The notes beneath the pieces are model-generated. The model saw only the letters and a program-made list of their open reading frames with translations, searched no databases and was not told where the DNA came from. Both the position numbers and the translations under genes were made by a program. 32,000 nt of DNA from Geobacter metallireducens GS-15 (GTDB taxonomy: Bacteria > Desulfobacterota > Desulfuromonadia > Geobacterales > Geobacteraceae), in assembly GCF_000012925.1 (NCBI RefSeq), contig NC_007517.1, positions 2,790,001-2,822,000 of the forward strand, in the 5' to 3' direction. Below, in pieces: positions 319 to 20,503 of the stretch (the first letter of the stretch is position 1; each line of letters begins with the position of its first letter).

Positions 319-343
319 ATTATCGCTGCTGCAACCATTCTCC

Positions 344-2021: not shown

Positions 2022-2054
2022 CGCCGGAAACAGCAACATCCATCATGCAAACGG

Positions 2055-2082
2055 AAAGGCTCCGCTCCAGCGGGGCCTTTTT
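2055..2082 (+). terminator. rho-independent terminator after the MFS gene
   Basis: AAA-GGCTCCGC-tcca-GCGGGGCC-TTTTT; 8-bp stem with one G-U pair. Confidence 0.75.
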
Positions 2083-2117
2083 CGTTCCCTGAATGATGAC
2101 TACCGACACGAGAGAGC

Positions 2118-2147
2118 TTGACAAGGCGTGGCGCCGGCACGTATATC
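2118..2147 (+). promoter_or_regulatory. sigma-70-like promoter candidate for exeA/gspB
   Basis: TTGACA (2118-2123), 18-nt spacer, TATATC (2142-2147); about 60 nt upstream of ATG 2209. Confidence 0.4.
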
Positions 2148-2208
2148 CAATGGGATTCCCGATTATTTCAAGCACGCTCCGGCCCCCCGCCGGATTCGGT
2201 GAAACCCC

Positions 2209-4550: not shown

Positions 4551-4573
4551 CTGGAAGAAGACGCGGTTGAGCG

Positions 4574-5380
4574 TTACCTGTTCCCCTTCTTCCGGGTGGG
4601 GCGCTCGAAGCGGCTGACGGGAATGGTGATCCCCTTCTTTACGTCGCCATAGTCCACATTGACCGCCGAGGGGATATCGCCCCCAAAGGTTGCGTAGACA
4701 GTCCCCTCGGCGGGTTCCCCACCGCCGTAGACATCCCTCACCTTCAGATAATACACCCCGCCCGCCGCGACCCGCAGAAGGTAGTTTCCCTCCTTGCCGG
4801 ACCGCTCCGAGACGAAAAGCGGCTTTCCCACCATTGTTGGCGAGGTGAACGCAAAGACGATGACCCCCTCAACGGGTTTTCCATCCCCATCGACGATTGT
4901 CCCTTCAATGGCGGTAAACCCCGCGGGACGTGCCGCTGCCGTTTCTTTGCCAAAGGGACGAACGCCGGCAATGGTCCCGGCGCCGGCCGTTTCCCCACCC
5001 TTTACGGTGAACGTCGCAGGCATTCCCTTGGCATCGGCGGCAACAAGAAAGAGCTCCCCATCCTTCGGCGGACCGATCTCCTTGCGGTTGTTCCGCTTGA
5101 TCGCCGCCAGGTAGTAGGCGCCCGCCTCCACCGCGACCGAGAACCGGCCGTCATCGTCCAGATCCTCCACATAATCGGGAACCAGCCAGTACCGGTCCGG
5201 GGCCGGCGGCGGACCGGCGCCCCGCCTGAACAGCACAACCGAGCCGTTAGCCAGCGGATTTTCCCCCTCGCCCAAAACCCGTCCGTTCAGCGTTCCGGTC
5301 TGCACCGGACCGGCCGCTACGGCGCCACTCGCCACAAGCAGACCGAGAACCGCTCCCCACAGCAGCCTGAAAATCATCAT
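4574..5380 (-). CDS. secreted protein with two tandem CarboxypepD_reg (transthyretin-like) domains
   Basis: The track ORF starts at 5581 and overlaps the giant gene. The ATG-ATG at 5380 is preceded by GGGGAGG and gives the signal peptide MMIFRLLWGAVLGLLVASGAVAAG. There are two repeats of the G-x-V-x-(G/D)-x-(G/D/E)-x-P-(L/V)...G-x-Y-x-L pattern (GTLNGRVLGEGENPLANGSVVLF..GAYYLAAI and IEGTIVDGDGKPVEGVIVFAF..GVYYLKV). Confidence 0.75.
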   Translation of the reverse strand: MMIFRLLWGAVLGLLVASGAVAAGPVQTGTLNGRVLGEGENPLANGSVVLFRRGAGPPPAPDRYWLVPDYVEDLDDDGRFSVAVEAGAYYLAAIKRNNRKEIGPPKDGELFLVAADAKGMPATFTVKGGETAGAGTIAGVRPFGKETAAARPAGFTAIEGTIVDGDGKPVEGVIVFAFTSPTMVGKPLFVSERSGKEGNYLLRVAAGGVYYLKVRDVYGGGEPAEGTVYATFGGDIPSAVNVDYGDVKKGITIPVSRFERPTRKKGNR

Positions 5381-5420: not shown

Positions 5421-8400
5421 CTATTTGCAGTTGCTGTCGCCCGGCACATAGGCCTGGGTCGTGGCTGACGCGGTGTTGCTGTAAGGCGATTTATCGCTGC
5501 CCCGATAGGCCCGCACCCGGTAGGTATAGCTCTTGAGGGGTTCGATGCCAATGGCATCGACATAGGTGGTAACGTTGGCACCCACCGTGGCCGTCTTCAC
5601 CCACTTGTCGTTCCATGCCTTGACCTCGATTTCGTACCCCTCTTCATCCGATGCCATGTCGGCCCAATTCAGCCTGATCGTGAAGGCATTGAGGGGGGTG
5701 GCGGTCAGGGTCTGGGGCTGGGCGGAGATGGCCGTCCCGCAGGCGATGTTCGTGTAGAGCGCCTCCCAGCCGGTGGTGCAGGCAGCGGTTTTCTCGGCCT
5801 TGACGCGGTAGCAGTACTGGATCGACGGGGTAAGGCCCGGATGCGTGTAAATCGCCGTCCCCCCCGCAACGGTGGCGATCTGCGTTGCGCTGGAGCAGTC
5901 ACCATTGTTGCACCCGTAGATGACGAAGCGGGTCTCGTCGGGGATCGGGTCGCCCCAACCGAGCAACAGCGAGGTATCCGTTGCCGGCGTGACGGTCAGG
6001 ACACCCGGCGCAACGGGAGCGGGTGTGGTTGCTGTGGCGGTGGCGCTGGCCGGCCCCGTGTACCCGGCGGTGAAGGTATACCCCGCCGACTGCTCCTCGG
6101 CGCCGACGGTTGCCGACGGCTCGGTTGCCGCGTACTTGCGCACCCTGATCCAGTCCCAGTCCGTGGCGTAGGGCTGGTCGTTGGAGGCGTCGGTATCATA
6201 GCGGCGCCCCAAGACGATGGGCTCCGCCGCCACGCCGTTGTTGACGTTCCCCGCGTTCCAGTAGAGGACGCCGGTATCGAAGTTGGTCGCCTGCATATTG
6301 ACCCACGACGCATCTATCACGGCCATGGAGTAGAGCATGTTTGCGGTGGTCGTCGGGGTTCCCCCCTTGGCGGTGTAGGAATTGTTATTGATAAAGTGGA
6401 CATAGGCGGGGTGCTCAAGCCACCCCACGTTATTGTACGACCCGGCAGAGAACCCACCGATGATCTGTCCGTCGATGGCAAACGAGGTGGTCTTCGCCTT
6501 GATGTCGAGAATGACTCCCGGCGAATAGCTGGTTTTGGATGTCAGTCGGCCCGTCACGTTGGTGCCGTGGAGATAGCCGCCGGAGACCGAGAAGCCGGTG
6601 CCGTCGGTGACCGTCCATTTGGTCGTGTCAATGGCGTTGTCGGTGAAATCATCGAAGAAGTCGAAGACGAGAGCGCCGCTGGCGATGCTTTCGGCGTTGG
6701 GATTCCCGTAGTAGAGATGGATGGTGCTGCTGGTCCTGGTCTTCACCCAGACCGTGGCGGTGGAGCTGTCGGTCTTCTTCTCGATCCAGTAGGGGAGTTC
6801 CTGGTTGGTGGCGGGATCGAAGAAGCGGATATCCGAGAAATCGGCTTTCATGCCGGCATCATAGGCAACCGTCATCTTTGTCTGGAAGTTGGGCTGGAAG
6901 TTGGCAATGGTGATCGGCTTGCGGCGGGTCCACGAACCTCCCCCGCCAGAGGAGAGCCCCACGTTCACCGCCTTGATCTGGTAGGTGTATGCGGTGCCGG
7001 GGCAGACACCGGTGTCCTCGTAGCTGGTGGCGTGACCCGGCGAATAGCCAACGAGCGAGAAGTTGCTGCATGGGTTCCCCATACACCGCTCAATCCGGAA
7101 ACCGGTGTCGGAGGGTGAATTGTCGGTCCAGCGCAGGGTGACGGAGGTACTGCTGGATGCGGAGGCGGTCAGACTGGTGGGCGCCAGGACCGTCGTGGAT
7201 GCCGAAACGATGCCGTTGGTGTTGTAGGCGCTGTAGGAGGTGCAGGATGCCGTCCGCTTGGCATGGAGCCGGTACCGGTACGTGGTGTCGGGGAGAAGCC
7301 CCACGTCATTGTAGGACGTGGGGCCCGCGGGAAGCTCGATGGTGTCCGCTCCGCTGAAATCGCACGTGGCGCCGCTGCAGCGCTCGATGACGAAGTTGGT
7401 CTCGTCGTTGCTGGCGTCGGTCCAGGTCAGGTTGATCTGGGATTCGCTTCCCCTTGTGGCGCTGAAGCCGGTCGGGGCCGCGATGGTCGGCGTGGTGATC
7501 GACTTGGTGGCGCTCGGCTGGCCGGTGTAGAGCCAGTCGGAGGTATAGCAGCCGCCGGCCTGCTCTTCAGCCCCGAGGGAAACCGTGGGAATGGCGGCGG
7601 CATAGCGGGAGGTGATTTCCTGGGCGGTGAGCGCGCGGTTGTAAATCCGCACCTCGTCTATAAGGCCGTTGAAGTAGCGGCCGGGATAGTCGAGGACACC
7701 GACCGCCAGGTTGACGGAAGAGAGATTCGGCAGATAGGGGAGTGTCGTGGCCCCCACCTGCTGGCCGTTCACGTAGAGCGTTGCCGACTGGCCGTTCAGG
7801 ACCGCAGCCACGTGGTTCCAGGCGTTGAGGGTGGCCGTGGCGCCGCTTCCCGGCACATAGTCGTTGCACCAGGTCGGCATGCTGGGACGGCCGCTGTTCT
7901 GGATGCTCAGGGCGAAACCGAGGCCGTTGCAGCCACGGCTGCTCCAGGAAACGATGCCGTTGTATGAAGCGTCGGCATAGACCTTGGGATAGATCCATGC
8001 CTCCACCGTCGCGACACTACCAGTCGGCACGTTGGGGGCCGCCCGGTTGGCCCAGGCCCCGCCACCGTTCAGGCTGAGGGCATTGCCGTAGGGGCCGCCG
8101 CTCACAACACCGTAGGGAGCGCTGAAACCGTTCATGGTCAGGTCGTTACCGGCGCCGCTGAAGTCCTTCGTGGTACCGGTGGTGGTCCCGGCATTTTCAT
8201 TGAAAGGAAAGTAGGCCATGAGGCCGGAACCGAACACCCCAGATTGGGAACCGACAGCCAATGCCGACGGGTTGCCATAATACAGATAAATGGAAGCCGT
8301 TTTGCCGGTCTTGAGCCACAAGGTGGCCGTGGCGCCGTTGGTCTTGCTCTCGATCCAGTAGGGGAGCTCTCCACCGGTGCCTTGATCGATGAAGCGCAGG

Positions 8401-11400
8401 TCGTTGAAATCGGCCTGCATGTCGGCATCGTAGGGGATGGTCAGTTTCACGAGGAAATCCGGCTGGAAGTTCGCAATCGTCAGGGGAGCGCGCCTGCTCC
8501 AGCAGCCGCCGCCGGCGGAGGAGAACCCTTCGTTGACCGGCCGAACCTGGTATGTGTAGCTCGTGCCGCTACAGACGCTTGAATCGGTATAGGAAGTGAC
8601 GCCGGCGCTGACCGAACCGACCTCGCTGAAGGTGGAGCAGCCGGCATCCTGGCACCGTTCGATCTTGAAGGAGGTTTCCGAGAAGGTGGTGTCGGTCCAC
8701 GAAGCCGCCACCTGGGTGCTTGAGGGCGTGGTGAGGGTCAGGCCCGTCGGAAGCGGGACCGTGGTGGCAACCTCCTGCTCGGCGCTGTAGGGGGTATCCC
8801 AACCGCACCCGCCCCCCTTGTAGGCCCGCACGCGGTAGCGGTAGGTCGTGTTGGGAAGGCGTCCGTAGTCGGTGTAGCTCGTCACGTTGGCGGCGACCGT
8901 CGCGATCTGGCTGAACGTCGTACAGCCGGTGCCGGTGCACCGCTCGATCTTGAAGCCGGTTTCGTCGCTGGTGTTGTCGGCCCAGCCAAGGACGACGGAT
9001 ACCTCGGACTGGGCAGTGGCCGTGAAGGCCGATGGTGCCTGGGGATCGGAGAGGGTGGCGGGAACCGCGGCGGTATAGGTTGCAGGCCAGCCGGTGACCC
9101 ACGGTTTGATGGACTTCACCCGGTACATGTACGTTCCGGCGCAGGCGGTGGTATCGCTGTAAGTTACGGTAGCAGTGGCATTCTGGGGAATGGTCACCGG
9201 GAAGCCGCTGTCAAGGGTGGTGAAGTCGCAGTTGAGCCCCTCACACCGCTCGATCTGGAATCCGTCCTCGTTGGTGGTGGTATCGGTCCAGGAAAGGTCC
9301 ACGCGGGTGCCGCTCACCGCCGTCACCAGGCCGGCCGGTGGCGCGGGGGTCGAGGTGCTCTTGCAGACCACGTCGGAATATGCCGAATCCCCCGTGGGGA
9401 TCAGCGTCTTTATCCGGTAGCAGTAAGTCTGGGCAGCATCCACCCCCCGGTCCACATAGGATGTCGTATTGGCAGCGGACGTGTCGATCTGGACGAAGTT
9501 GCTGCATCCGGCGCCGGTGCAGCGCTCGATGCCGAAGCCGGTTTCCGACCCGGAGTTGTCGCTCCAGGCGAGCGTTATCCGGTCCACTGCAAGGGGCGTC
9601 GTGTCAAGCAGCGGGAGGACTGCCTGGTAGTTGCTGAGCGCCGCCGCCCCCGTGGCCGTATGGTTGACGGTAAGGGGGATGCGGACGGCAAACGTTGCAC
9701 CGCCGAGGGTAAAGGGGCCATACTCCTTCGTGCCAGCGGTGGCGGTCGGGGCAACGGCAGCAAGCTTTCGCACCAGAACCCAGTACCAGTCGGTCTGGTA
9801 TGCCTGGCCGCCGTAATAGTCCCCGTAATAGGTCAGGCCAAGACCGAGAGGCTTATTGTTGATGGAATAGCTCTTGGACATTGGACTTATGTACCACGCG
9901 CCGGTGTCCCAGTTGTACCCCTGGATCGTCGTAGTGGCGCCATCGGTGCTGTATATTGAATAGCCCATGTTGTTGGCCGGCACCGAGGTGGTGGTCACGG
10001 CGGTAATCCATTCGCCGTATAGGTTATACCCGCCGTGGCTGGGCCCCACCGAGATGCCGAAGTAGTCGTAGGTCCCGTTGTAGACACCGCCCACCATGTG
10101 GGTGTTGGCAGCCAGGGTCGTCGTCTTGACTTTGAAGGTGGCGAGCATGCCGTTAAGCATCTTGAACGTTGACACCAGCCTTCCGCTGCTGTTGTTCCCC
10201 CGCAGGGTCCCGTTCTGGACAGTGAAGTTACCGGCGCTCCCAAGGGTCTGGGTCCACTTGGCGCCGTTGATGGCAGTGTCGGTGAAGTCGTCGAAGAACT
10301 CGAAGGTGGCATCGCCGTTGTCAACGGAGGGCGCAGTGGTGTTGCCGTAGTAGTAGTAGAGGGTCTTGGTCCCCACGGGGATGGAGGAGACTTTCTGCCA
10401 GATTCTGGTGCCTGTGGTGTTGCACTGGAGTTGCTGCACCCACTGGCTGAGAAGCGTCCCGTCACTCTCGGTGGCGCGGATATCCTCGCAGCCGGTCGTA
10501 ACGGCGGGGCTGACGGCAAAGGCCGCCGGCGGCAGGACCGTCGTCTGGGCGGTGGAGGTGACGCTCTCCAGCTCCCAGCCGCAGGATGCCGTCTTGAAGG
10601 CCGCGACCTTGTACGTGTAGCTGGTGCCGGGGGTCAAGCCGGTGTCCTTGAACGATGTGGTATTTGCGGGAAGATCGCTGCCGACCTTGCTGAAGACGGA
10701 ACACCCTGCGCCCGCACAGCGGTAAATCCGGAACCCGGTTTCATCACTGGTGGTGTCGGTCCATGCCAGATCGATCTGGACCTCAGTGCCACGGCTTGCC
10801 GTAAACCCAGAAGGGGGCATGGGGGTTGGCGTTGTCACGCTACGGGTATTACTTGCTAGCCCGTCCCACATGATGGGGAAGGTACCGCCGAAAACCGCTT
10901 CCTCCCCGAGTGTCACTGTGGGCTCCGGGGCTGCGAACTTGCGAACCCGCGCGTTGTCGAGCTTGAATACCTGGTTGTAGTTGGCGAAGCCCACCTTGAA
11001 TGATGGAGCCGTGCTGTAAGTGCTCGCATAGAAGGAGGTGGCGTCGCTGGAGCTGGTGCCGTGATAGTAGTTGGCCCCCGTAGTCGGCAAGACTTCGAAC
11101 CGGAAGTATTGCCACACATCCGAAGAGATCGCCTTCTTGTTGTCCCCGCGGCTGTTTCCATCCTCGTAGACCGCCAGGCGGTTCCCGCCGCCGTCATAGA
11201 TCGGGTAGGCCGCATAGGCGAAATCGGTGTAGCTGACGTCGGCGGTGGTCGACTTGATACCGGGCATCATATATTGGCCGCCCGAGCGGTAGTGGTTCAC
11301 CTCGAAGACAAAGGGACGGCTGAAGTTCGCAACGGAGTACATCCCCGTGGACCAGCTGCCTGGGCCGCCGCTCGACAGGAACTCGCCGCCGGTTTGTGAG

Positions 11401-14400
11401 TAATAGGCGCCCGACGTGGTCCACTTTGAGGTGTCTATGGCAGCGGAAGCAAAGCCGTCGAAGAGCTCGAATACCAGCGGACCGTTGCCGGCACCCGTGG
11501 CGCCCCCATTACCGTAATACAGGGAAATCGTATTGAACCCGCCGGTTTTGATCCAGAATGTGGCGGTCGTGCTGTTGGTCCTGCTCTCGATCCAGTAGGG
11601 AATCTCCCTTTGGGTCGTCTCGTCGTAGAAACGGATGTCGGTAAAATCGGCCTTCATGTCGGCATCGTAGGGGATGACGACTTTTGTCTGGAAGTAAGGC
11701 TGGAAATTGGCGATGGCGAGGGGAACCTTCCGGCTCCAGGTGCCGCCGTTGCCACGGGAAAGGCCCTGGTTTACGGCGCGGACCCGGTAGGTATAGGTGG
11801 TCGAATTGCAGGCTGATGCATCTGAAACGCTTGTCGCGCTGGGGGCGGTGAGGACGACGACGCTGTAATCCTGTTCGGCACAGGTCGTGCCAAGGCAGCG
11901 CTCGACATTGTAGCCGGTTTCGGATCCGGCCGTATCGGTCCAGGCAAGGCTTACGGTGGTGGTGTCCGCCGCCGTGGCTGAGGTCAGGCTTGGGGCTGCG
12001 GAGGTTGTGGTTGCCTCGGCGACGCCGCTGTAGGGGCCGTTCCAGCCGGCAGCCGACGTCTTGTACGCCCGAATCTGGTAGCGATAGAGCGTGTCCGGCT
12101 GTACCGCCACGATGTCGCTGTAGGAGGTGGCGCTGGCGGCAACCGTATCGATCTGGGTGAAGGTGCTGCATCCCGATCCGGTGCAGCGTTCGATTTTGAA
12201 ACCGCTCTCGTCGTTATTCGAGTCGCTCCAGGCGAGGTCGATCTGCCCCTCGCTCCCCCTGGTGGCGGTCAGGCCCGTGGGGGCCGTGGGGGTCGGCGTC
12301 GTGGCACTGGCGGGCGTGGAGAACTGGGACTGCCAGTCAGCGGTCTTGTAGGAAAGAACCTTGTAGGTGTAGGTGGTGGCGGCGGTGACGCCAGTGTCGC
12401 TGTAGGTGGTGACGTTGGACGCGACGGAGCCGATCTCCGCGTAATCCGCGGCACTGCAGGACACAGTGCTCCCGGTGCAGCGGAAGATGCGGAAACCGGT
12501 CTCGCCGGTGGTGTTGTCCTGCCAGGTGAGATTGACGGTGGTGGTGTTGGCGGCAACGGGGGTCACGACGCTGGGGGGCGGCGGGCTGGTAAGCACGATA
12601 TCGCGCTCGATCCAGCGCTGATCCGGCTGCCCGCTCTTGAATGGCCGGACGCGGTAGCAGTACTCTTCGCCGACGTTGAGCCCCGTATCCGAGTAGGCGG
12701 TCGTATTGGCGGCAGTGGTAGTGAGCAGCTGCCAGGGGTTGGATGAAGTGCAGTTCCCCACCTGCCGCTCGATGGTGAACCCGTCCTCGCCGGTGGAGGT
12801 ATCGGTCCAGGCGAGATCGGCCTTTGTGTAGAAGGGAGAGGCGGTAAAGGGGGAGCTCGCCTGCAGCGGCGTGCCGTCTCCCTTGAAAACGAGGTAATCG
12901 GCGTTTCCCGTAGCGTTGGTGGTATACCCCGCCACCAGGGTCTCGCCCAGGGAGTTGACCGTCACCGCCAGGGCCTGGTCGTAGCCGTTGGCAGCGCCGT
13001 TGTAGATGGTGGCGGCGAGGAGGTTTCCCGCGTAGTCGAATTTCACCGCCATGGCATCGGTGGTCAATCCGCTGGCAGGCCCCGTATAGCCGACGACACT
13101 AACGTTGCCGCTGACATCCATGGCCATGGCGGTTGCATAGTCATCGCTCGAGGGGCGGAGGTGGACCTTCTGCCAGACCACGTTTCCGGCGCTGCTGTAG
13201 CGGATGATGATGAAGTCGTGGTCGCCGGTTCCCGTGAGGGTCGTGCCGGCCACCACCACGGTGTCGTCGATCAGGTCGTATTTGACCGTGATCCCCTTGT
13301 CGTCGGCATTGGGGTTGCCTGCGGTAGTTCCGTCGTAGCTCTTCTGCCAGATGACCCGGCTGGCGGTGGGCACCGCCTTTCCGTCATACTTGACGAGGAT
13401 GATGTCGTCGTTGCCCGCGGCGTTGCGGGTGCTGCCGGTGACGTAGACGTTACCCACCGCGTCCACGGCCAGGCTCTGGCCATAGTCGTCGCCGTGGCCG
13501 GCGCCGTCGAGGATGTGGTCCCAGATTTTGACGCCGGTGGCGCCGTTGTATTTGGCGGTGTAGATGTCGTAGTTGATGCCGTTGTGACGGTAGCCGGTAA
13601 TGACGATGTTCCCGTCCTTGTCAAAGGCAACGGCCGAGGGATAGTCGTTGCCGCCGCCGTCGTAGGGGGTGGCCGACCAGGCGGGTATCGCCTTGCCGAA
13701 GCCGTCCAGGGGCGGGGTGGCGGCATACTTGAGCAGGTAGATGTCGTCATTGTTGGCGGCGTTCTTGCCGTACCCCACCACCGCCACGTTGTTGGAGCCG
13801 TCGACGGCGGTGGCGATGGCCCGCGCCCGGTCGTCGATGCCGCCGGGACCGTTGTACTGCCCTTCCCAGAGGGGAATCCCCCCGGCAGCGGGATACTTGA
13901 GCGTGAAGACGGAATTGATGTTCCTGGCCGCCGGGGCGTAATAGAGAGAGGAGTAGCCGGTCACGATGGCGGTGTTGCTTCCGTCCACAACCACGCTCTT
14001 GGCGATGTCGAGCTCGCTGTCCACATCGTTATAGCGCTCTGACCAGAGGAGTGCTCCGGTTGTATGGTCGAGCTTGACCGTGTAGTAGTCGAAACCGGTC
14101 AAGGTGGCCAGGCTGTAGCCCGTAACCACGGGGTTATTGTCGGGCCCCACGGCGATCGCTTCCGCGTAGTCCTCGCTGTTGTCGCTGCTGTTGAAGACGT
14201 AGTTCCAGGTAGGCGCGAGATAGTTCACATACAGGGTGATGACGCTGATCTCGTCAGAGGGGTTTGAGCTGCCGTTCAGGGCGTTGTAGGAACGGACCCG
14301 GTAGTAGTAGGTGCTGTTGGCCGTGAGCCCCGTGTCGGTGAAGGTGGTCACGTTGGCCCCCACCGTGCCGACCTCGGCCCAGATCCCCTCGCTGGTGAGC

Positions 14401-15944
14401 TTGCGCTCGATGCGGAAGCCGTCCTCGTTGGTGGAGTTGTCGGTCCAGTCGACCTTGACGGACGTGTTGGAGAGGACCGTCGCGGTCAGGTTGCCCGGCG
14501 AATTCAGGCTCCCGGCGTCCAATACCACCTGCCAGTAGTCGTAGTCCGATGCGCCGGCGGTCCAGACATCGGACCATCCCCCAACAACCACCACGAACTC
14601 GTTGTCCGTGGTCTTGATGCCGAGCCCCACCGCCTTGTCGCTCTTACCTGCCGTCCCGTTGAAGGCCGTGTGCCAGAGCTCGCCGGCACTGGCGGCTCCG
14701 TTCTGGTACTTGATGCAGAGCATGTCGGTGGTGCCGGCACCCGTGAGGGTGTAGCCGCCCACATAGACGTTACCGCCGGCATCCAAGACGATGTCGGTGC
14801 CGAAGTCGTGCCCCCCTCCCCCCGAATCGTAGAGCTTGTCCCACGCCTTCGTGCCGTTGGTCGAATCATACCGGATGACGACGAGATCCTCGTTCCCGGT
14901 GAGGGTGGTGGCATACCCCGTCACATAGACGTTTCCCCCTCCGTCCAGCGCAAGGGCGGTCGGCTCGTCGTCCATGTTGGTCGGTCCGTTGTAGGTAGCG
15001 CTCCAGAGCAAGGCGCCATTGGTCCCGTTGTACTTTGCCGTGTAGATGTCGACGTTGGTGCCGTTATTGACCGAGGCGGCAACGACAACGTTCCCCGAGC
15101 CGTCCACCCTCACCTTCCGTCCCGCGTCGGCATTGGTGCCTGCCGAGCTGTCGCGGTTTTCCCAGAGCTTGGTGCCGGCGTAGTCGTACTTGATGGTGAG
15201 AACGTCGAAATCGGTGCCGTTCCACGACTGCCCCGTCACCGCCACTCCCCCCGGCCCCGTGGCTATCGCCGCCAGCTTGTCCGTGCCGTTGGCTGTTCCG
15301 TTCCAGGTGGCGATCCAGAGGGGGGTACCGTCGGGGTTCGGTCCGTTCACGCCGAACTTCAGGACGATGTAGTCCTCGTTGCCGGACGCGTTCTGCACAG
15401 AGCCGCCCACATAGACGTTGTTGAGCCCATCAACGGCGATGGCCGTGCCGATGTCGTTGCCGCCGGCCGGAGCGTTATAGGTATTCTCCCAGAGCTTTGC
15501 ACCGTCGCTTCCCCGGTACTTGACCGTGTAGATGTCAAAGTTGCTGCCGTTCCAGGCAAAGCCGGTGACGATGGCGTCATTGTTGGAGTCCACGGCGATG
15601 GCAGTGGCTTGGTCGGAGCCCCCCGCCCGGTTGTAGGAGGCGCGCCACGCTACCGTGCCGTCGGGATTGAACTTCACGGTCCAGTAGTCGTCATCGGTCA
15701 GGCCCGCAAGGTTACGGTAGCCGGTAACGATGAGCCGTCCGTCACCATCCACTACCGACGCCTTTGCCTCCTGCTTCCCCGCCTGGGGGGTGTCACCCGC
15801 ATCCCGGAGCTTGTCGCCGCCTGCGCCGAAAACCGGTACCGCCATGGACGCCACAAAGAACAGCAGCAAAGCCAACCGTGAAATAGCACCGGCTGCCGTG
15901 CCACGAACCAATTGTCTTAACGCATATATCATCGCAATCACCAT
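5421..15944 (-). CDS. giant secreted/cell-surface protein (~3,500 aa): 2 SBBP beta-propellers, 14 FN3 domains, 4 DUF2341 + ConA/LamG-like modules
   Basis: Uninterrupted ORF. The track start at 16181 overlaps the cytochrome gene. Plausible starts are ATG 15944 (overlapping the cytochrome stop) or ATG 15932 (GGTGA 5 nt upstream). Signal peptide: ..LRQLVRGTAAGAISRLALLLFFVASMAVPVFGAGG. Domain motifs are listed in the findings. Stop is TAG at 5421-5423. Confidence 0.9.
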   Translation of the reverse strand: MVIAMIYALRQLVRGTAAGAISRLALLLFFVASMAVPVFGAGGDKLRDAGDTPQAGKQEAKASVVDGDGRLIVTGYRNLAGLTDDDYWTVKFNPDGTVAWRASYNRAGGSDQATAIAVDSNNDAIVTGFAWNGSNFDIYTVKYRGSDGAKLWENTYNAPAGGNDIGTAIAVDGLNNVYVGGSVQNASGNEDYIVLKFGVNGPNPDGTPLWIATWNGTANGTDKLAAIATGPGGVAVTGQSWNGTDFDVLTIKYDYAGTKLWENRDSSAGTNADAGRKVRVDGSGNVVVAASVNNGTNVDIYTAKYNGTNGALLWSATYNGPTNMDDEPTALALDGGGNVYVTGYATTLTGNEDLVVIRYDSTNGTKAWDKLYDSGGGGHDFGTDIVLDAGGNVYVGGYTLTGAGTTDMLCIKYQNGAASAGELWHTAFNGTAGKSDKAVGLGIKTTDNEFVVVVGGWSDVWTAGASDYDYWQVVLDAGSLNSPGNLTATVLSNTSVKVDWTDNSTNEDGFRIERKLTSEGIWAEVGTVGANVTTFTDTGLTANSTYYYRVRSYNALNGSSNPSDEISVITLYVNYLAPTWNYVFNSSDNSEDYAEAIAVGPDNNPVVTGYSLATLTGFDYYTVKLDHTTGALLWSERYNDVDSELDIAKSVVVDGSNTAIVTGYSSLYYAPAARNINSVFTLKYPAAGGIPLWEGQYNGPGGIDDRARAIATAVDGSNNVAVVGYGKNAANNDDIYLLKYAATPPLDGFGKAIPAWSATPYDGGGNDYPSAVAFDKDGNIVITGYRHNGINYDIYTAKYNGATGVKIWDHILDGAGHGDDYGQSLAVDAVGNVYVTGSTRNAAGNDDIILVKYDGKAVPTASRVIWQKSYDGTTAGNPNADDKGITVKYDLIDDTVVVAGTTLTGTGDHDFIIIRYSSAGNVVWQKVHLRPSSDDYATAMAMDVSGNVSVVGYTGPASGLTTDAMAVKFDYAGNLLAATIYNGAANGYDQALAVTVNSLGETLVAGYTTNATGNADYLVFKGDGTPLQASSPFTASPFYTKADLAWTDTSTGEDGFTIERQVGNCTSSNPWQLLTTTAANTTAYSDTGLNVGEEYCYRVRPFKSGQPDQRWIERDIVLTSPPPPSVVTPVAANTTTVNLTWQDNTTGETGFRIFRCTGSTVSCSAADYAEIGSVASNVTTYSDTGVTAATTYTYKVLSYKTADWQSQFSTPASATTPTPTAPTGLTATRGSEGQIDLAWSDSNNDESGFKIERCTGSGCSTFTQIDTVAASATSYSDIVAVQPDTLYRYQIRAYKTSAAGWNGPYSGVAEATTTSAAPSLTSATAADTTTVSLAWTDTAGSETGYNVERCLGTTCAEQDYSVVVLTAPSATSVSDASACNSTTYTYRVRAVNQGLSRGNGGTWSRKVPLAIANFQPYFQTKVVIPYDADMKADFTDIRFYDETTQREIPYWIESRTNSTTATFWIKTGGFNTISLYYGNGGATGAGNGPLVFELFDGFASAAIDTSKWTTSGAYYSQTGGEFLSSGGPGSWSTGMYSVANFSRPFVFEVNHYRSGGQYMMPGIKSTTADVSYTDFAYAAYPIYDGGGNRLAVYEDGNSRGDNKKAISSDVWQYFRFEVLPTTGANYYHGTSSSDATSFYASTYSTAPSFKVGFANYNQVFKLDNARVRKFAAPEPTVTLGEEAVFGGTFPIMWDGLASNTRSVTTPTPMPPSGFTASRGTEVQIDLAWTDTTSDETGFRIYRCAGAGCSVFSKVGSDLPANTTSFKDTGLTPGTSYTYKVAAFKTASCGWELESVTSTAQTTVLPPAAFAVSPAVTTGCEDIRATESDGTLLSQWVQQLQCNTTGTRIWQKVSSIPVGTKTLYYYYGNTTAPSVDNGDATFEFFDDFTDTAINGAKWTQTLGSAGNFTVQNGTLRGNNSSGRLVSTFKMLNGMLATFKVKTTTLAANTHMVGGVYNGTYDYFGISVGPSHGGYNLYGEWITAVTTTSVPANNMGYSIYSTDGATTTIQGYNWDTGAWYISPMSKSYSINNKPLGLGLTYYGDYYGGQAYQTDWYWVLVRKLAAVAPTATAGTKEYGPFTLGGATFAVRIPLTVNHTATGAAALSNYQAVLPLLDTTPLAVDRITLAWSDNSGSETGFGIERCTGAGCSNFVQIDTSAANTTSYVDRGVDAAQTYCYRIKTLIPTGDSAYSDVVCKSTSTPAPPAGLVTAVSGTRVDLSWTDTTTNEDGFQIERCEGLNCDFTTLDSGFPVTIPQNATATVTYSDTTACAGTYMYRVKSIKPWVTGWPATYTAAVPATLSDPQAPSAFTATAQSEVSVVLGWADNTSDETGFKIERCTGTGCTTFSQIATVAANVTSYTDYGRLPNTTYRYRVRAYKGGGCGWDTPYSAEQEVATTVPLPTGLTLTTPSSTQVAASWTDTTFSETSFKIERCQDAGCSTFSEVGSVSAGVTSYTDSSVCSGTSYTYQVRPVNEGFSSAGGGCWSRRAPLTIANFQPDFLVKLTIPYDADMQADFNDLRFIDQGTGGELPYWIESKTNGATATLWLKTGKTASIYLYYGNPSALAVGSQSGVFGSGLMAYFPFNENAGTTTGTTKDFSGAGNDLTMNGFSAPYGVVSGGPYGNALSLNGGGAWANRAAPNVPTGSVATVEAWIYPKVYADASYNGIVSWSSRGCNGLGFALSIQNSGRPSMPTWCNDYVPGSGATATLNAWNHVAAVLNGQSATLYVNGQQVGATTLPYLPNLSSVNLAVGVLDYPGRYFNGLIDEVRIYNRALTAQEITSRYAAAIPTVSLGAEEQAGGCYTSDWLYTGQPSATKSITTPTIAAPTGFSATRGSESQINLTWTDASNDETNFVIERCSGATCDFSGADTIELPAGPTSYNDVGLLPDTTYRYRLHAKRTASCTSYSAYNTNGIVSASTTVLAPTSLTASASSSTSVTLRWTDNSPSDTGFRIERCMGNPCSNFSLVGYSPGHATSYEDTGVCPGTAYTYQIKAVNVGLSSGGGGSWTRRKPITIANFQPNFQTKMTVAYDAGMKADFSDIRFFDPATNQELPYWIEKKTDSSTATVWVKTRTSSTIHLYYGNPNAESIASGALVFDFFDDFTDNAIDTTKWTVTDGTGFSVSGGYLHGTNVTGRLTSKTSYSPGVILDIKAKTTSFAIDGQIIGGFSAGSYNNVGWLEHPAYVHFINNNSYTAKGGTPTTTANMLYSMAVIDASWVNMQATNFDTGVLYWNAGNVNNGVAAEPIVLGRRYDTDASNDQPYATDWDWIRVRKYAATEPSATVGAEEQSAGYTFTAGYTGPASATATATTPAPVAPGVLTVTPATDTSLLLGWGDPIPDETRFVIYGCNNGDCSSATQIATVAGGTAIYTHPGLTPSIQYCYRVKAEKTAACTTGWEALYTNIACGTAISAQPQTLTATPLNAFTIRLNWADMASDEEGYEIEVKAWNDKWVKTATVGANVTTYVDAIGIEPLKSYTYRVRAYRGSDKSPYSNTASATTQAYVPGDSNCK
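6132..6932 (-). repeat. DUF2341 + ConA-like module 4
   Basis: WTRRKPITIANFQPNFQTKMTVAYDAGMKADFSDIRFFDPATNQELPYWIEKKTDSSTATVWVKTRTSSTIHLYYGN, then LVFDFFDDFTDNAIDTTKWTV...TDWDWIRVRKY. Confidence 0.7.
7602..8504 (-). repeat. DUF2341 + Laminin_G_3 (LamG) module 3
   Basis: WSRRAPLTIANFQPDFLVKLTIPYDADMQADFNDLRFIDQGTGGELPYWIESKTNGATATLWLKTGKTASIYLYYGN, then a classical LamG_3 signature ..LMAYFPFNENAG..ALSLNGGG..TVEAWIYP..WNHVAAVLNGQSATLYVNGQQVG..YFNGLIDEVRIYNRALTAQEI. Confidence 0.75.
9762..10499 (-). repeat. degenerate DUF2341-like + ConA-like module 2
   Basis: CEDIRATESDGTLLSQWVQQ..TRIWQKVSSIPVGTKTLYYYYGN, then ATFEFFDDFTDTAINGAKWTQ...TDWYWVLVRKL. The N-terminal half of DUF2341 is missing. Confidence 0.55.
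10917..11732 (-). repeat. DUF2341 + ConA-like lectin/glucanase-fold module 1
   Basis: WSRKVPLAIANFQPYFQTKVVIPYDADMKADFTDIRFYDETTQREIPYWIESRTNSTTATFWIKTGGFNTISLYYGN, then LVFELFDGF..IDTSKW...LDNARVRKF. Confidence 0.7.
12882..14219 (-). repeat. intragenic repeat block: second SBBP-type beta-propeller (7-8 blades)
   Basis: DYYTVKLDHTTGALLW, VFTLKYPAAGGIPLW, DIYLLKYAATPP, DIYTAKYNGATGVKIW, DIILVKYDGKAV..VIW, DFIIIRYSSAGNVVW, DAMAVKFDYAGNLL. Confidence 0.7.
14532..15764 (-). repeat. intragenic repeat block: seven SBBP-type beta-propeller blades (propeller 1)
   Basis: Seven recurrences of D-(Y/I/V/L/M)-x-(V/I/T/C)-(V/L/I/A)-(K/R)-(Y/F)-...-G-...-W, each followed by a D..GN.YV.G strand. Examples: DYWTVKFNPDGTVAW, DIYTVKYRGSDGAKLW, DVLTIKYDYAGTKLW, DIYTAKYNGTNGALLW, DLVVIRYDSTNGTKAW. 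Confidence 0.7.
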
Positions 15945-18900
15945 TGTGTCTTGGAGTTCCAGGAGTTGTCGGGCCACACGCCAGTCGGGTGACAGTTCAC
16001 GCGACTCTGCCCTTTCCCCTTCGGGAAGGTGCCGCTCCCCTCGCCGGCGGCGCCGCCGGAAGCCACCCGGCCGCGGTGTTTCACATCGAGGCAGTTGGTC
16101 TGCATGAGCCGCGGGAGGCTCGAAACGTGGGGAACGTGGCACTTGGAGCAGGTGAATGTGTGCATGTCGTTCTTGCCCCACCCTTTCACCGTCTGGTGAA
16201 CGCGGTCAACGCCTTTCCACGGCTTCGTCTTGTCAGTGCCGGCAGTCAGGTTCGACTTGGGATGGCACCGCATGCAGAGACCGGCAAACTTCGTGTCTTC
16301 TTCCGTGATCCTGCGCCAGCCGAAAGTCCCCTGGTCAAGGTTGACATAGGGGGTCGGTGTCGGGTTCTGGTATCCTCTGCTACCCCGGCTGCCGGTGATC
16401 GCTCCGTCCAGGGGGAACTCTTCCTTGTAGGGAGAGGTCATCCAGGTCCCCTTCAGAAGCGGGACGGCATAGGCCTGATCGCTGCCGAGGGACGGGCTGA
16501 CCCCGTGGGGGTCGTGGCAGGGGGTGCAGAGACCGTCGATGGTACCCATGGCATTGTTCGTAAGGGAGGACGATGCCTTGAAGTGCCCCCCTTTGACCGT
16601 GATGCCCTTGAACGACGTCCGCTTCATGTATCCCGCCTGCCCCTGGCCGAACTTGTCGGTATCGCGATACCCCCTCACCGAGGAGATTGCGCCGAAGGTG
16701 GAGAAATAACCCCAGGGGGTGATGCCGCTGTTGCGGGTCAGGTGGCAGTCGAAGCACTGGCCGGCGCCGGTGTTGTAAGGGTTGACCGAATTGCTGTCCG
16801 AATTCGACGACGCCTTGTAGGTCATGGCGTAGCCCCCCTTGCCCGCCTGGGTCTCCTTCAGGTTGCCGCCGTTCTTGGTGCCGTTGAAGGTGACGTAGCT
16901 CGTGGTTGTGCCGTTGGCCTTGGAGCCGTGGGAGCTGTGGCAGTCGTAACACTGGACCGCCTGGCCACCGCCGCGGGTATTGGGTATGTCGCCGTCGTAG
17001 CCGGTCTGGGTGCTCCAGCCACCCCGGTTTGCCGTCGCATTGCCATGGGCGGAAAAGGCCTTGGTCTGGTTCTTCCTGGCGGCATTGGCCGTGCCGGCGT
17101 ACTTGCCCCAGGTCGTGGTGCCGGTCTGCTGGTAGCGGGCGGCGATGCTGGAGCGGTCCCACGCATACTGACGCGGGGTCTTGCAGTCGCCGAAGACATC
17201 GGTGTCGTTGTTCTGGTCGCTGTGGCAGCCGATGCAGTGGTTGGTAACCTTGGCCGCCTCGGCCCGCTCCGAGGCGGTCCCGATGTTGGAGGCCAGGAAC
17301 TGGATGGCCGTGGTGGTGTTGTAGAAGGTGGGGCGGACCCTCGGCTTCCAGACCACCAGGTCCACCTTGGCGTTCTTCACCGACGAGTAAATCTTGTAGT
17401 TGTACCCCTCGTGGTAGTCCACATCGATGAGCCCCTGGGGGGTGGCCTCCCAGTGGCACTGGTAGCAGTCGGTGTTCTTAACCTCGCCGTTGGCCCGCTG
17501 GACGTGGTGGGAGTTGGAGCGCATCTGTCCCATGATGTCCATCCGCTTGCCGATGGTTCCCGAATGACACTTGGTGCAGTCCCGCGGCAGGCCAAAGGCG
17601 GTATGCTTCGGGATCGGCTTGGCGTTCTCGTGGCAGCTGTTGCACGCCTGCTTGTTGGCGTGGCTGTCGGCGAAGCGGTGCTCGTGGCAGGTGGTGCAGA
17701 CCCGGCTCACGTTGTGGCCGTCGCCGCTCACGCTGGTGAAGTGTCTGGCGGAAGGTGAATGGCAGACGTTGCAGATGCCGTTGTAGGGCGCCGTGGTCCG
17801 GGCATAGTCAAGACCGCTCTGCTTCTTGGTGAATACCACGTCGGCACGGGTTTTCGGGATACCGAAACGGCCGTCGGAGGTGGTGGCCACCTTGTCGTGG
17901 ATCATGTAGATATTGGAGTCCCCATGGGGGTCATGGCAGTCCCAGCAGAACTTGCCCCCCTTCCAGCTTCCCTGGTAACTGGAATAGGTACCCCATATGG
18001 GTGACTTGGTAGCTGAAGGGATCTTCGTCCACCCGCCCGAATCCTTGAATGCACGGTAGTGCTTATAGCCGAAATGGCCGGCCGAAGCCCGGGCCCTCTT
18101 CGGCTTGATGAAGCGGGTCCCCGACATCAGCGGATCGAAGCCGAGCGAGTACTTCAGGGGGTCATTCTCAGGAGCCCGGTGGCATTCGGTGCACTGGCCG
18201 CCGCTGTCGTCGTCATGGCACTGGAGGCATACCCCCATCATCAGGTACTGGTTCCTGACGTCATCCTTCTGCTCCGCCGTCCAGGTTCCGGCATTGACGT
18301 CGTGCCCCTTGTGGGTGCCGCTGGCGAAGGTGCCGCTGTCGGAGTCATGGCAGTTGACGGCCGTGCAGCCGGTCACCTGGATGTGACTGGGAAACTGCGT
18401 TACCGTGCTCCAGTTGCTCTGCCTGAAAACGATACCGACGGCCGTGGCCTGGGGGGCCAGGGAATCGGCCTGCCCCACGTGGCAGCCGATGCACTCGTCG
18501 TCGCTGCGGGTCATGTGGCAGTAGACGCACTCCTTCACGAAGCGGCGCTCGTACTGGCGGTGCATTCTGAGCCGGAAGGGATTGGTGGCGTCCTTGTGCA
18601 GAGCGTTGTTGTCGTGGCAATACCAGCAGGGGTTGCCGGGGAAATTTGCCGCCGGGTTCCCCGAAACCGGATAGGCGCCGGCAGAGGAGTAGCGGCCGTG
18701 GCCGGACACCGTCCACTGGGTGAGGCTGATGCGCGCCTGGGTGCCGTTGAATGAGTTGTAGTCGTCCTGGTCCGCACCGGTCGTCCCGTGGCAGCCGAGG
18801 CAGGTGACCGCCCCCGTCACCGCCCCCCCCCAGACCGGGTCGGTTCCGCTGGTATGGCACTTGGTGTTGGAGCAGGTTTTGGCAACCGGGTTGTAGGAGC

Positions 18901-20503
18901 CTCCATCCTTGAAGACCACGTCCTTGGTCTTGTTGACGTGGTAGGTGCCGTTCAGGTGCGAAGACTCCCCCATGCTCCCGATGGGAATGCCGTTGCTGTG
19001 GCAGGAAGCGCAGTCCCCGATAACGGTGGCGGCATGGCAGTTGTCGCAGCTGAAATTCGTTTCCGAGTGGCGGGGATGGGAGTTGGCGCGGGGAGTACCC
19101 GCCCCCTGGTTGGCGAACATCGGCATCGCCTCCATCCACTCCTGGCCAGTCGGGAAGGCGTACGCACCAAGCGCCCCAAAACGTGAGGGGAGAGTCCACA
19201 CCTTCCCGCCTTCTATGCGTCCGTCATGGCAGCCGGTGTCAGAACAGCCGCCCCGCAGGTGGCCATGGCAGTCGTTGCAGCCGGCTTTGGTGGCGGTCCA
19301 GGGGAAGGCGCGGACGGTCTCGGGATCGGTGGTGCCGTCGCTGTGGCAATAGACATTGGAACAGACCTTGGTTGTTGAATCATAGGACGCATCCGTTCGC
19401 CCCACGATGTTCCACTGGGATGCCATCTTCACATCCCTCGTGCCGTTTACATGCTTCGTCGTATCGATGATGTTACCGGCACTGTCAGCCGTGGCACTGT
19501 GGCAATAGGAGCAAGGGTACTTCCGGATCCAGTGGGAGCCCACCAGCTTATTGTGGCCGTTGCTGCTCATGTTGAGATAGGGGGAGCACTTTGTTTTGTC
19601 GCTGTCCCAAGTGCCTCCCACGCTGGTGCAGTTGGCCTCGGTGCTGTCGGAGCTGCGGCCCCGGTGGCACGAATAGCACTGGATGGTGCCCGAATCGGAC
19701 CAGCGCGCTACCGTGAACGGTGCACCGCCGCGACCATCGCTGTGACAGTAGAGATTGGCGCAGGTTCCGTTGCGGGGCGGGTTCTGGCTCGGCAGATAGC
19801 CGGGATAGGTGAGGACTCCGCTGTACGTGCCGCCGCTGTTGGGCGTTTTGGTGAACTTTACGACGAGCGCGCGCTTGGCGACGCTCGTGGCGTGGGCAAA
19901 GGGACGCGCCTCGGCGGTGTGGTCCGTGTGGCACGAGGCGCAACTCCCCGTCCCGGTTCCCAGGTAGTCGCCGTGTTTCTTGCCGGAACCAGAGACCGCC
20001 GGGTGGTTTCCGTCGCTTGGCGCCGCGCCATGGCAGGCGGAACAGCCGGTCGGGGCAGCAAGGGGCGAAGAGCCCCAAATCGGGGTCGCCGCCTCGAAGT
20101 GGCAGTTGATGTTCGTGCAGCTTCCGGGGGTGGGAGTTGCGCTCTGGGGGGATGAGGTGTGATTGCGGAAGGCGGTTGCAAGGGGTGAATTGTTGATGCG
20201 GCTCGAAATCCTGATGCTGCCGTTGCGGTGAGAAGCAGTGTACGAAGCGCTCCCCGGATGGCATTGGGAGCAGCTGCCAGGCACGGCGGAGGCGTCCATG
20301 TGGGTTCGGTGGTTCCCCTGAAAACCGCCCGAGCTTATGTTGCGGTAGGCATTGTCAGCGGGCCGGTAATCCACCGGGCTCGAAGAGCCGTGGCAGCTGT
20401 AACATTCCAGCGCTCCTTCGGCTGGGCCGGCCAGTGACAAGACGCCGACAAACAATAGCATCAACGACGAGCCAACTCTCTGACAAGTGCTCTTGCCTAC
20501 CAC
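15938..20503 (-). CDS. giant multiheme c-type cytochrome (~1,520 aa; 27 CXXCH + 6 CX4CH motifs)
   Basis: The track ORF begins with TTG at 20524. The in-frame GTG at 20503 follows GGGGAGGGG by 5-6 nt and gives the signal peptide M-VGKSTCQRVGSSLMLLFVGVLSLAGPAEGA; ATG 20461 is another option. The first heme motif CYSCH is at 20390-20404 and the last CSKCH at 16136-16150. Stop is TGA at 15938-15940. Confidence 0.9.
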   Translation of the reverse strand: MVGKSTCQRVGSSLMLLFVGVLSLAGPAEGALECYSCHGSSSPVDYRPADNAYRNISSGGFQGNHRTHMDASAVPGSCSQCHPGSASYTASHRNGSIRISSRINNSPLATAFRNHTSSPQSATPTPGSCTNINCHFEAATPIWGSSPLAAPTGCSACHGAAPSDGNHPAVSGSGKKHGDYLGTGTGSCASCHTDHTAEARPFAHATSVAKRALVVKFTKTPNSGGTYSGVLTYPGYLPSQNPPRNGTCANLYCHSDGRGGAPFTVARWSDSGTIQCYSCHRGRSSDSTEANCTSVGGTWDSDKTKCSPYLNMSSNGHNKLVGSHWIRKYPCSYCHSATADSAGNIIDTTKHVNGTRDVKMASQWNIVGRTDASYDSTTKVCSNVYCHSDGTTDPETVRAFPWTATKAGCNDCHGHLRGGCSDTGCHDGRIEGGKVWTLPSRFGALGAYAFPTGQEWMEAMPMFANQGAGTPRANSHPRHSETNFSCDNCHAATVIGDCASCHSNGIPIGSMGESSHLNGTYHVNKTKDVVFKDGGSYNPVAKTCSNTKCHTSGTDPVWGGAVTGAVTCLGCHGTTGADQDDYNSFNGTQARISLTQWTVSGHGRYSSAGAYPVSGNPAANFPGNPCWYCHDNNALHKDATNPFRLRMHRQYERRFVKECVYCHMTRSDDECIGCHVGQADSLAPQATAVGIVFRQSNWSTVTQFPSHIQVTGCTAVNCHDSDSGTFASGTHKGHDVNAGTWTAEQKDDVRNQYLMMGVCLQCHDDDSGGQCTECHRAPENDPLKYSLGFDPLMSGTRFIKPKRARASAGHFGYKHYRAFKDSGGWTKIPSATKSPIWGTYSSYQGSWKGGKFCWDCHDPHGDSNIYMIHDKVATTSDGRFGIPKTRADVVFTKKQSGLDYARTTAPYNGICNVCHSPSARHFTSVSGDGHNVSRVCTTCHEHRFADSHANKQACNSCHENAKPIPKHTAFGLPRDCTKCHSGTIGKRMDIMGQMRSNSHHVQRANGEVKNTDCYQCHWEATPQGLIDVDYHEGYNYKIYSSVKNAKVDLVVWKPRVRPTFYNTTTAIQFLASNIGTASERAEAAKVTNHCIGCHSDQNNDTDVFGDCKTPRQYAWDRSSIAARYQQTGTTTWGKYAGTANAARKNQTKAFSAHGNATANRGGWSTQTGYDGDIPNTRGGGQAVQCYDCHSSHGSKANGTTTSYVTFNGTKNGGNLKETQAGKGGYAMTYKASSNSDSNSVNPYNTGAGQCFDCHLTRNSGITPWGYFSTFGAISSVRGYRDTDKFGQGQAGYMKRTSFKGITVKGGHFKASSSLTNNAMGTIDGLCTPCHDPHGVSPSLGSDQAYAVPLLKGTWMTSPYKEEFPLDGAITGSRGSRGYQNPTPTPYVNLDQGTFGWRRITEEDTKFAGLCMRCHPKSNLTAGTDKTKPWKGVDRVHQTVKGWGKNDMHTFTCSKCHVPHVSSLPRLMQTNCLDVKHRGRVASGGAAGEGSGTFPKGKGQSRVNCHPTGVWPDNSWNSKTQW

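Follow-up and report, generated by a model that had tools for sequence, protein, structure and literature searches.

The window analysed here is a 32,000-nt stretch of contig NC_007517.1 of Geobacter metallireducens GS-15 (positions 2,790,001 to 2,822,000 of the forward strand), and the element in question is Gmet_2469, a giant gene on its reverse strand (window 5421-15944) that an exact-sequence look-up identifies as GenBank ABB32694.1 and UniProt Q39ST0, encoding a protein of 3507 amino acids (aa). It lies between Gmet_2470, which encodes a multihaem c-type cytochrome, and Gmet_2468, which encodes a small secreted protein. The architecture of Gmet_2469 is not new, its fibronectin type III (FN3), DUF2341 and LamG parts being already present in the public name of the protein, 'fibronectin type III repeat, DUF2341 repeat and LamG-like domain protein', and taken alone it is ordinary; the value of the gene is its linkage to the cytochrome, which is real and conserved and is reinforced by natural fusions. 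The features of the locus, in the direction of transcription of Gmet_2469 and followed by those around it, are listed below with window coordinates, strand and basis of assignment.

15825..15944, (-): start codon and Sec-type signal peptide (aa 1-40, MVIAMIYALRQ...AVPVFG/AGGDKL); gene callers' start, predicted cleavage at the slash
14517..15764, (-): beta-propeller 1 (aa 61-476), seven full delta-60/SBBP repeats and a closing half-repeat; repeat profiles
14238..14516, (-): FN3 no. 1 (aa 477-569), between the propellers; Pfam and self-profile
12870..14237, (-): beta-propeller 2 (aa 570-1025), seven full repeats and two half-repeats; repeat profiles
11739..12869, (-): FN3 nos. 2-5 (aa 1026-1402); self-profile
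10896..11738, (-): cassette 1 (aa 1403-1683), DUF2341 core and GH16-like concanavalin A (ConA) jelly roll; Pfam 80 bits, custom core and jelly-roll profiles
10563..10829, (-): FN3 no. 6 (aa 1706-1794); self-profile
9621..10496, (-): cassette 2 (aa 1817-2108), DUF2341 strands 3-7, jelly roll and orphan strands 1-2 (aa ~2076-2108); Pfam 98 bits
8502..9617, (-): FN3 nos. 7-10 (aa 2110-2481); self-profile
7545..8501, (-): cassette 3 (aa 2482-2800), DUF2341 core, then Laminin_G_3; Pfam 50 and 103.5 bits
6933..7490, (-): FN3 nos. 11-12 (aa 2819-3004); self-profile
6093..6932, (-): cassette 4 (aa 3005-3284), DUF2341 core and GH16-like ConA jelly roll; Pfam 92 bits, AlphaFold2, Foldseek
5463..6023, (-): FN3 nos. 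13-14 (aa 3308-3494); self-profile
5421..5462, (-): C-terminal tail ...QAYVPGDSNCK and stop codon; family conservation, Cys3506
15938..20461, (-): Gmet_2470, 1507-aa multihaem c-type cytochrome; 27 CxxCH and 6 CxxxxCH motifs
4574..5377, (-): Gmet_2468, secreted 267-aa CarboxypepD_reg-domain protein; domain match, ABB32693.1
20693..20845, (-): terminator-like hairpin (20845-20818) and promoter-like site (20722-20693); consensus matches

The TGA stop codon of Gmet_2470 (ABB32695.1, annotated 'cytochrome c') overlaps the ATG of Gmet_2469 by 7 nt (ATGGTGA). The cytochrome matches the Geobacter CxxxxCH/CxxCH family with its 33 haem motifs and has an isoelectric point (pI) of 8.8, against 4.6 for the product of Gmet_2469, in which no CxxCH or CxxxxCH motif was found. 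On the other side, Gmet_2468 (carboxypeptidase-regulatory-like) begins 43 nt 3' of Gmet_2469 on the same strand behind a GGGGAGG ribosome-binding site and is probably the third gene of the operon; CarboxypepD_reg genes also follow the giant at three related loci (L007, L008, and L009). The association with a cytochrome recurs at related loci: a 24-35-haem cytochrome of the same type lies directly upstream, on the same strand, at all seven examined loci that encode a twin propeller with an FN3 stalk (the window, L007, L008, L009, L010, L012, and L013), down to 35% identity from a maximum of 83%. The giants of L010 and L013 carry ten FN3 domains and another C-terminal domain, with no DUF2341, and propeller-only relatives of ~950 aa have no cytochrome neighbour. 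The placement of the gene directly behind a cytochrome, pointed out in a preliminary description of this DNA made from the letters alone, is thus a real conserved context, as the 7-nt overlap, the seven loci, and the natural fusions described below attest.

The repertoire of DUF2341 proteins was surveyed with a profile of the whole cassette, that is, the DUF2341 core together with its jelly roll, which matched 29,085 of 1.84 billion representative proteins at E<=1e-3 and 8,799 at E<=1e-30. The best 150 of the 29,085 were ranked by total score, a choice that is biased toward multi-copy proteins. All of these 150 carry at least two DUF2341 cores, 69 carry at least four, and one carries 21; 54 exceed 3000 aa. 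The four-cassette multivalent design had been called unusual, a view that does not survive this comparison, with 2-21 copies in each of the best 150, and DUF2341 arrays are, on this sequence evidence, commonplace. The combination of twin propeller and FN3 that defines the Gmet_2469 family accounts for 11 of the 150.

Haem motifs, counted as at least three CxxCH, occur in six of the same best 150, and these six proteins join on one chain what G. metallireducens keeps on several. Three of them (P0122, P0115, and P0145) open with a haem module resembling the N-terminus of Gmet_2470 (for P0122, 38% identity over 403 residues, E 2e-61), continue through PKD, CarboxypepD_reg, SdrD_B, and Laminin_G_3 domains, and end with FN3 and three DUF2341 cassettes that are 35-38% identical to Gmet_2469 over 640-724 residues (E 1e-105); therefore, a single polypeptide combines domain types from each of the three G. 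metallireducens genes. P0122 clusters at 90% identity with a protein from a Geobacter sp. metagenome-assembled genome (MAG). The other three (P0058, P0094, and P0106), giants of ~6-6.5 thousand residues, place a DUF2341 cassette between CxxCH clusters near the C-terminus, an arrangement that seems to have arisen by a separate fusion event; for P0106, the clustering partner is a protein from an Actinomycetota MAG. The fusions P0122, P0115, P0145, and P0106 draw on the building blocks of the three-gene operon, whereas G. metallireducens splits these parts over three genes, has 33 haem motifs rather than 9-11, and adds two propellers. These comparisons bear on the possibility that Gmet_2469 is a general adhesin of the biofilm matrix or cell surface that shares only its regulation with the cytochrome, in the absence of any specific partnership, physical or functional. 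Such a role would agree with the make-up of FN3, lectin-like, and propeller modules, which is typical of large bacterial adhesins, with the acidic, Thr/Ser/Gly-rich composition, and with the lack of haem motifs in the majority of multi-cassette DUF2341 giants within the best 150 (the six above have them, and 11 more belong to the Gmet_2469 family). However, the 7-nt overlap, the unbroken linkage down to 35% identity, and the repeated haem fusions exceed what co-regulation alone predicts, and we regard an unpartnered adhesin as possible but rather unlikely.

The gene itself is sound. The preliminary description had numbered the protein from the start of the longest open reading frame (ORF), which is present at 5421..16181 on the reverse strand; its single intact reading frame stands, but translation actually begins with the ATG at 15944, not at 16181, so that ATG-based residue numbers plus 79 give the earlier ones. 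After this shift of 79 residues, all boundaries of the earlier domain map agree with ours to within ~10 residues. An interruption of the frame, which would have made it a pseudogene, was looked for and none was seen: an identical, uninterrupted protein with the same ATG called is encoded on 23 Logan contigs from independent sequencing runs, and Gmet_2469 is accordingly not a pseudogene. Repeats within the gene are only 60-78% identical at the DNA level, and its 14 FN3 copies share 21-56% pairwise identity. Because of this low repeat identity and the 23 identical contigs, the duplications are old and no assembly artefact is involved; misassembly and recent repeat expansion were both excluded. 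The predicted product is a ~370-kDa protein. Orthologues, sourced from genome and metagenome scans and from the representative-protein search, were found in G. grbiciae, Geobacter sp. DSM 9736, and Desulfuromonadaceae MAGs, while homologue searches with a single cassette returned only short proteins (265-545 aa) and no giant orthologue. Module order is identical to that of Gmet_2469 in orthologues at 83%, 63%, and 62% identity (L007, L008, and L009, respectively), so the module design is, by sequence comparison, fixed in this lineage.

Domain searches recovered most of what had been read from the letters, with gradations. The DUF2341 domain was found four times, and fn3 and SBBP were found as well; the SBBP matches are weak, and Laminin_G_3 is confined to cassette 3. 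In the propellers, SBBP (PF06739) scores 28.2 and 27.1 bits (cut-off 20.5) when Pfam is run on segments, and the delta-60 repeat TIGR02608 of NCBIfam is marginal (78.4 versus 76.5 bits). A self-built blade profile resolves 17 repeat units across the two propellers, with seven full repeats of ~60 aa plus closing half-repeats in each, which suggests that each propeller is probably eight-bladed; the propeller profile run against Protein Data Bank (PDB) sequences matched FN3 entries only. Beta-propeller proteins are encoded beside other Geobacter outer-surface cytochromes, and the twin propeller is always kept beside the cytochrome in this family, including in the giants without DUF2341 (L010, L013, and L007_up). 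Both points would fit a factor that exports, folds, or assembles the giant cytochrome, with the propellers as chaperone or assembly platform and the rest of the protein as a support spanning the periplasm or envelope, in place of an adhesin role. On the other hand, 3500 aa with 14 FN3 domains and four lectin-like heads would make a costly chaperone, the fusions retain the FN3/DUF2341 part and not the propellers, and Pfam detects no chaperone-like or protease domain in Gmet_2469; we consider an assembly role improbable.

The FN3 content is substantial, PF00041 scoring 228.6 bits over the protein (gathering threshold 25). Pfam reports eight stretches, and a self-built profile finds 14 copies, each at E<=1e-27, in groups of 1+4+1+4+2+2, the very grouping proposed earlier. 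A cysteine pair in the motif ERCxGxxC (CxGxxC) is present in 11 of the 14 copies and would form a probable disulfide hairpin. Copies 4/5, 9/10, and 11/12 pair by similarity, each pair with its own cassette, and this similarity shows that the duplicated super-unit is FN3(a)-FN3(b)-DUF2341-ConA.

The four PF10102 (DUF2341) matches score 80, 98.4, 50, and 91.8 bits, and 280 bits for the whole protein (gathering threshold 23.4). The family is described by Pfam as having no assigned function, as had been noted before, and none is given in the searched literature that mentions it. Among homologues spanning the whole cassette, the consensus starts with W-x-x-R-x-x-I-x-I, passes through DFSDIRF, YWIE, and YYGN to FDFFDDF...KW, and reaches DWIRVRKY..PEP after ~150 hypervariable residues; in the family alignment, all conserved residues fall in the DUF2341 core and in the opening and closing strands of the jelly roll, whose middle is hypervariable. 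The Pfam model runs from DFSDIRF to FDFFDDF, covering sandwich strands 3-7 and the first jelly-roll strand and omitting sandwich strands 1-2, and thus does not match a structural domain. The AlphaFold2 model of cassette 4 is all-beta (mean predicted local distance difference test score, pLDDT, 82.5; predicted template modelling score 0.85); its first ~75 residues form seven strands, and a jelly roll comes next. Foldseek returned 182 PDB matches to this model at E<=1e-3, headed by GH16 glucanases, agarases, and O-glycanases, the C-terminal sandwich of GH43 enzymes, and the lectin domains of Emp47p and of the sialidase from Vibrio cholerae. In cassette 3, Laminin_G_3 (PF13385) scores 103.5 bits over profile positions 2-150 of 151 (cut-off 27.6), and the DUF2341 match there spans only positions 1-65 of 84 because Laminin_G_3 replaces the GH16-like jelly roll. 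Neither Laminin_G_3 nor any other Pfam ConA-like family matches cassettes 1, 2, or 4, to which a ConA-like part had also been ascribed; that assignment holds for cassette 4 through its predicted structure and the Foldseek matches, and for cassettes 1 and 2 the jelly-roll assignment follows from homology, at 32-35% identity, with cassette 4. The modelled cassette thus consists of a small beta-sandwich that packs against a ConA jelly roll of the GH16-like kind, predicted to lack catalytic residues.

The likeness to GH16 raises the question of a polysaccharide-degrading enzyme array, in which GH16-like domains would be borne on an FN3 stalk. Cassette 4 shares the jelly-roll fold with GH16 and ConA-like lectin structures such as the O-glycanase 6T2P, the Rv0315 orthologue 4XXP, Emp47p (2A6Z), and V. 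cholerae sialidase (2W68), at E 4e-8 to 1e-5, target-normalised TM-scores of 0.5-0.6, and 9-17% identity, and its best Foldseek matches are the GH16 enzymes named above. A search of PDB sequences with the cassette profile found no solved DUF2341 structure and only marginal matches to GH16, which fall on the jelly-roll start DDFxGxxLDxxKW, a stretch common to the Gmet_2469 jelly roll and GH16. Unlike GH16, however, none of the four ConA-like domains, nor the rest of Gmet_2469, contains the catalytic ExDxxE motif (searched as E-x-D-x(x)-E); the central jelly-roll positions of the family alignment include no invariant acidic residue, Pfam gives no GH16 match in the whole protein or in segments, and an extra DUF2341 beta-sandwich of ~85 residues is present on the N-terminal side. 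An entry related to 4XXP, 4WZF, is titled pseudo-glucanase. The enzyme reading was dropped because the catalytic motif is absent, and we judge it very unlikely.

Elsewhere, DUF2341 cassettes occur on prepilin-like proteins, on proteins with a type IX secretion system (T9SS) tail, and on PGF-CTERM proteins, all of them surface-displayed types. The closest single-cassette homologues, P0001 and P0002, carry a prepilin N-methylation domain, and the gene for P0002 (L029 2947-5779) adjoins two more large pilin-like genes, a setting from which it follows that the cassette is also displayed on pilus-type proteins. Proteins with PF10102 have been tied to type IV pilus loci (PMC4858521), and known cases include archaeal type IV pilus-locus proteins of the MJ1470 type, Patescibacteria giants, and N-terminal appendages of ExbB/TolQ-like subunits. 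Gmet_2469 shares with them the domain itself (50-98 bits per copy), which is extracytoplasmic and frequently present in several copies in very large proteins, and differs from them in having neither a pilin signal nor an ExbB/TolQ channel and in possessing two propellers and a cytochrome linkage. A pilus or pseudopilus tip adhesin, after the manner of the archaeal and Patescibacteria proteins, could call on P0001, P0002, and their pilin-like neighbours, and on the GspB-like and GspA/ExeA-like genes that lie just downstream of the operon on the other strand. Gmet_2469, however, has a Sec-type and not a class III signal peptide and no N_methyl (PF07963) match, genes for a pilin or an assembly ATPase are missing from the window, and the retrieved flanks of L008 and L009 did not show the GspA/B-like pair; we judge a role at a pilus tip very unlikely.

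Both ends of the protein show family-wide features. In the orthologues, canonical AXA cleavage sites stand just before the conserved mature N-terminus (A)GGD(K/L). The C-terminus, ...PGDSNCK, has no hydrophobic stretch, and Pfam and NCBIfam gave no match at E<=0.01 to sorting domains of the PEP-CTERM, T9SS Por_Secre_tail, LPXTG, or PGF-CTERM type. The twin-propeller/FN3 giants all end in ...PxYxPGDxxC[KPRNQ], with an invariant cysteine second or third from the end (window 5424-5462, aa 3495-3507), in Gmet_2469 the penultimate Cys3506, and to our knowledge this tail resembles no sorting signal. A second cysteine lies ~104 residues upstream, before the last FN3 (aa ~3402, window 5736-5741), in 11 of 12 sequences. 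From this pattern, the two residues probably form an intramolecular disulfide that staples the tail, although the tail cysteine could also serve as an intermolecular attachment site.

Together, these data point to Gmet_2469 as a secreted, non-enzymatic scaffold or adhesin that works with Gmet_2470 and probably with Gmet_2468, a reading to which we assign a probability of about 0.5. Because of the gene overlap, the conserved linkage, and the fusions, Gmet_2469 can be regarded as the non-haem part of an extracellular cytochrome assembly; we infer its extracellular location, its contact with the cytochrome, and the existence of ligands for its lectin-like modules. In such an assembly, the cytochrome would most likely dock on, or be organised by, the twin propeller and its FN3, which stay constant across the family; the 14 FN3 domains would form a long spacer (~80-90 nm when fully extended, by our estimate), and the four DUF2341 and ConA-fold modules would act as variable binding heads on this spacer, directed at glycans (of the cell's own matrix, of lipopolysaccharide, or of a partner cell) or at mineral surfaces. 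In this arrangement, the protein would hold Gmet_2470, or set its position, on the outside of the cell for use in extracellular electron transfer. The signal peptide, the FN3 cysteine pairs, the opposite isoelectric points of the two large proteins, the surface-display signals on DUF2341 proteins elsewhere, and the modest joint rise of Gmet_2470 and Gmet_2468 in expression are consistent with an extracellular assembly. In design, the protein recalls giant repetitive adhesins of the RTX type, such as LapA, SiiE, and MpIBP, in which rods of Ig-like or FN3 spacers carry terminal ligand-binding modules: in both, a long beta-sandwich rod displays sugar- or surface-binding modules. Gmet_2469 differs in having no RTX or type I secretion signal and no Ca-binding BIg repeats, in the interspersed placement of its modules, and in its coupling to a cytochrome.

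Several observations weigh against the scaffold reading. The seven linkage loci share descent and are not independent. The fusions P0122, P0115, and P0145 have no propellers and partners of the L010/L013 type have no DUF2341, so no single module always accompanies the cytochrome. No outer-membrane export or anchoring signal was recognised in Gmet_2469 by Pfam or NCBIfam, and no sugar- or metal-binding site was identified in its jelly rolls. In published supplementary data, the protein is given as having one transmembrane helix and no signal peptide (PMC10989804). The prediction of single-cassette structures, proposed with the earlier domain map, succeeded in part, cassette 4 being modelled with confidence (pLDDT 82.5) and cassette 2 poorly (65.4).

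Gmet_2469 has left few traces in the literature: searches by locus tag found it only in supplementary expression tables (PMC10989804), where it is classed as fibronectin type III among surface structures and is expressed (Holmes et al. 2022), and where, in one comparison of direct interspecies electron transfer (DIET), Gmet_2470 was up 2.75x and Gmet_2468 up 2.94x. The searched literature yielded no discussion of its cytochrome linkage, and papers mentioning DUF2341 yielded no cytochrome association or link to electron transfer. A 2025 review calls for work on the 'secretion and anchoring' of Geobacter cytochromes (PMC12307469), and a giant cytochrome coupled to a giant scaffold offers a concrete and genetically tractable anchoring candidate in a model organism. 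The linkage also gives a functional handle on DUF2341, whose cassette profile reaches ~29,000 representative proteins. More tentatively, Gmet_2470-2469-2468 and their relatives might constitute an undescribed 'cytochrome on a tether', in which a ~90 nm stalk built of FN3 and lectin-like modules carries a 33-34-haem cytochrome and the DUF2341 and ConA cassette attaches it to glycans of the matrix, to minerals, or to partner cells; if true, this would provide the first function for DUF2341 and explain the anchoring of some extracellular cytochromes beyond the outer membrane.

Cassette 2 deserves separate comment. It had been described as degenerate, yet it has the highest Pfam DUF2341 score of the four (98.4 bits) and lacks only strands 1-2, which lie outside the Pfam model. 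Its N-terminus is without these first two strands, and ~15-20 linker residues follow the preceding FN3. A two-strand profile built from 458 unrelated members of the DUF2341 family detects orphan strands 1-2 directly after the cassette 2 jelly roll in orthologues (L008, 22 bits; L009 and P0037, 24 bits; P0038, 30; P0060, 32; P0071, 16), the cassette lying at aa 1904-2193 in L008, aa 1981-2276 in P0038, and aa 1529-1818 in P0060. Where found, the orphan strands outscore the canonical N-terminal copies of the same protein. The corresponding G. metallireducens segment, FAVRIPLTVNHTATGAAALSNYQAVLPL, is diverged and recognisable by eye. The order of strands 3-7, jelly roll, and strands 1-2 is that which a circular permutation by duplication and trimming would produce, making cassette 2 a candidate circular permutant. 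In the AlphaFold2 model of cassette 2 with its C-terminal extension (the source of the mean pLDDT given above), the extension scores below 50 and is undocked, the alignment having no coverage of the segment.

Several observations concern the surroundings of the operon. At L007, the closest MAG relative, the cytochrome is flanked by two giants, a second, partial one lying upstream of the cytochrome gene (37-4950 on the forward strand; propeller, ten FN3, no DUF2341, Cys tail). G. metallireducens has a second 34-haem cytochrome, Gmet_0581 (PMC10989804), which might have its own giant partner. Convergent to the operon, window 2209-4550 on the forward strand encodes two proteins: one of 562 aa, GspA/ExeA-like, with AAA_22 and peptidoglycan-binding domains, and one of 218 aa that matches T2SSB (GspB) weakly. 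The larger gene also occurs in L007, and the pair might conceivably take part in exporting the giant or the cytochrome. At the other end, a Rfam scan of the Gmet_2470 leader found no riboswitch and one sub-threshold small RNA match. A 12-bp GC-rich hairpin with a T-run lies 3' of genes for a GDP-mannose dehydratase, a GDP-fucose synthase-like protein, and a cupin, with the promoter-like site next to it, and these elements, identified by consensus, mark the probable operon boundary. The upstream GDP-fucose genes and LptD were considered as parts of the system and set aside, given the terminator-like hairpin between and the other genes found at that position in L007 and L008. A 482-aa ORF at 20773-22221 on the forward strand, antisense to the epimerase-family and cupin genes and without a Pfam match, is almost certainly spurious, an effect of the GC-rich genome.

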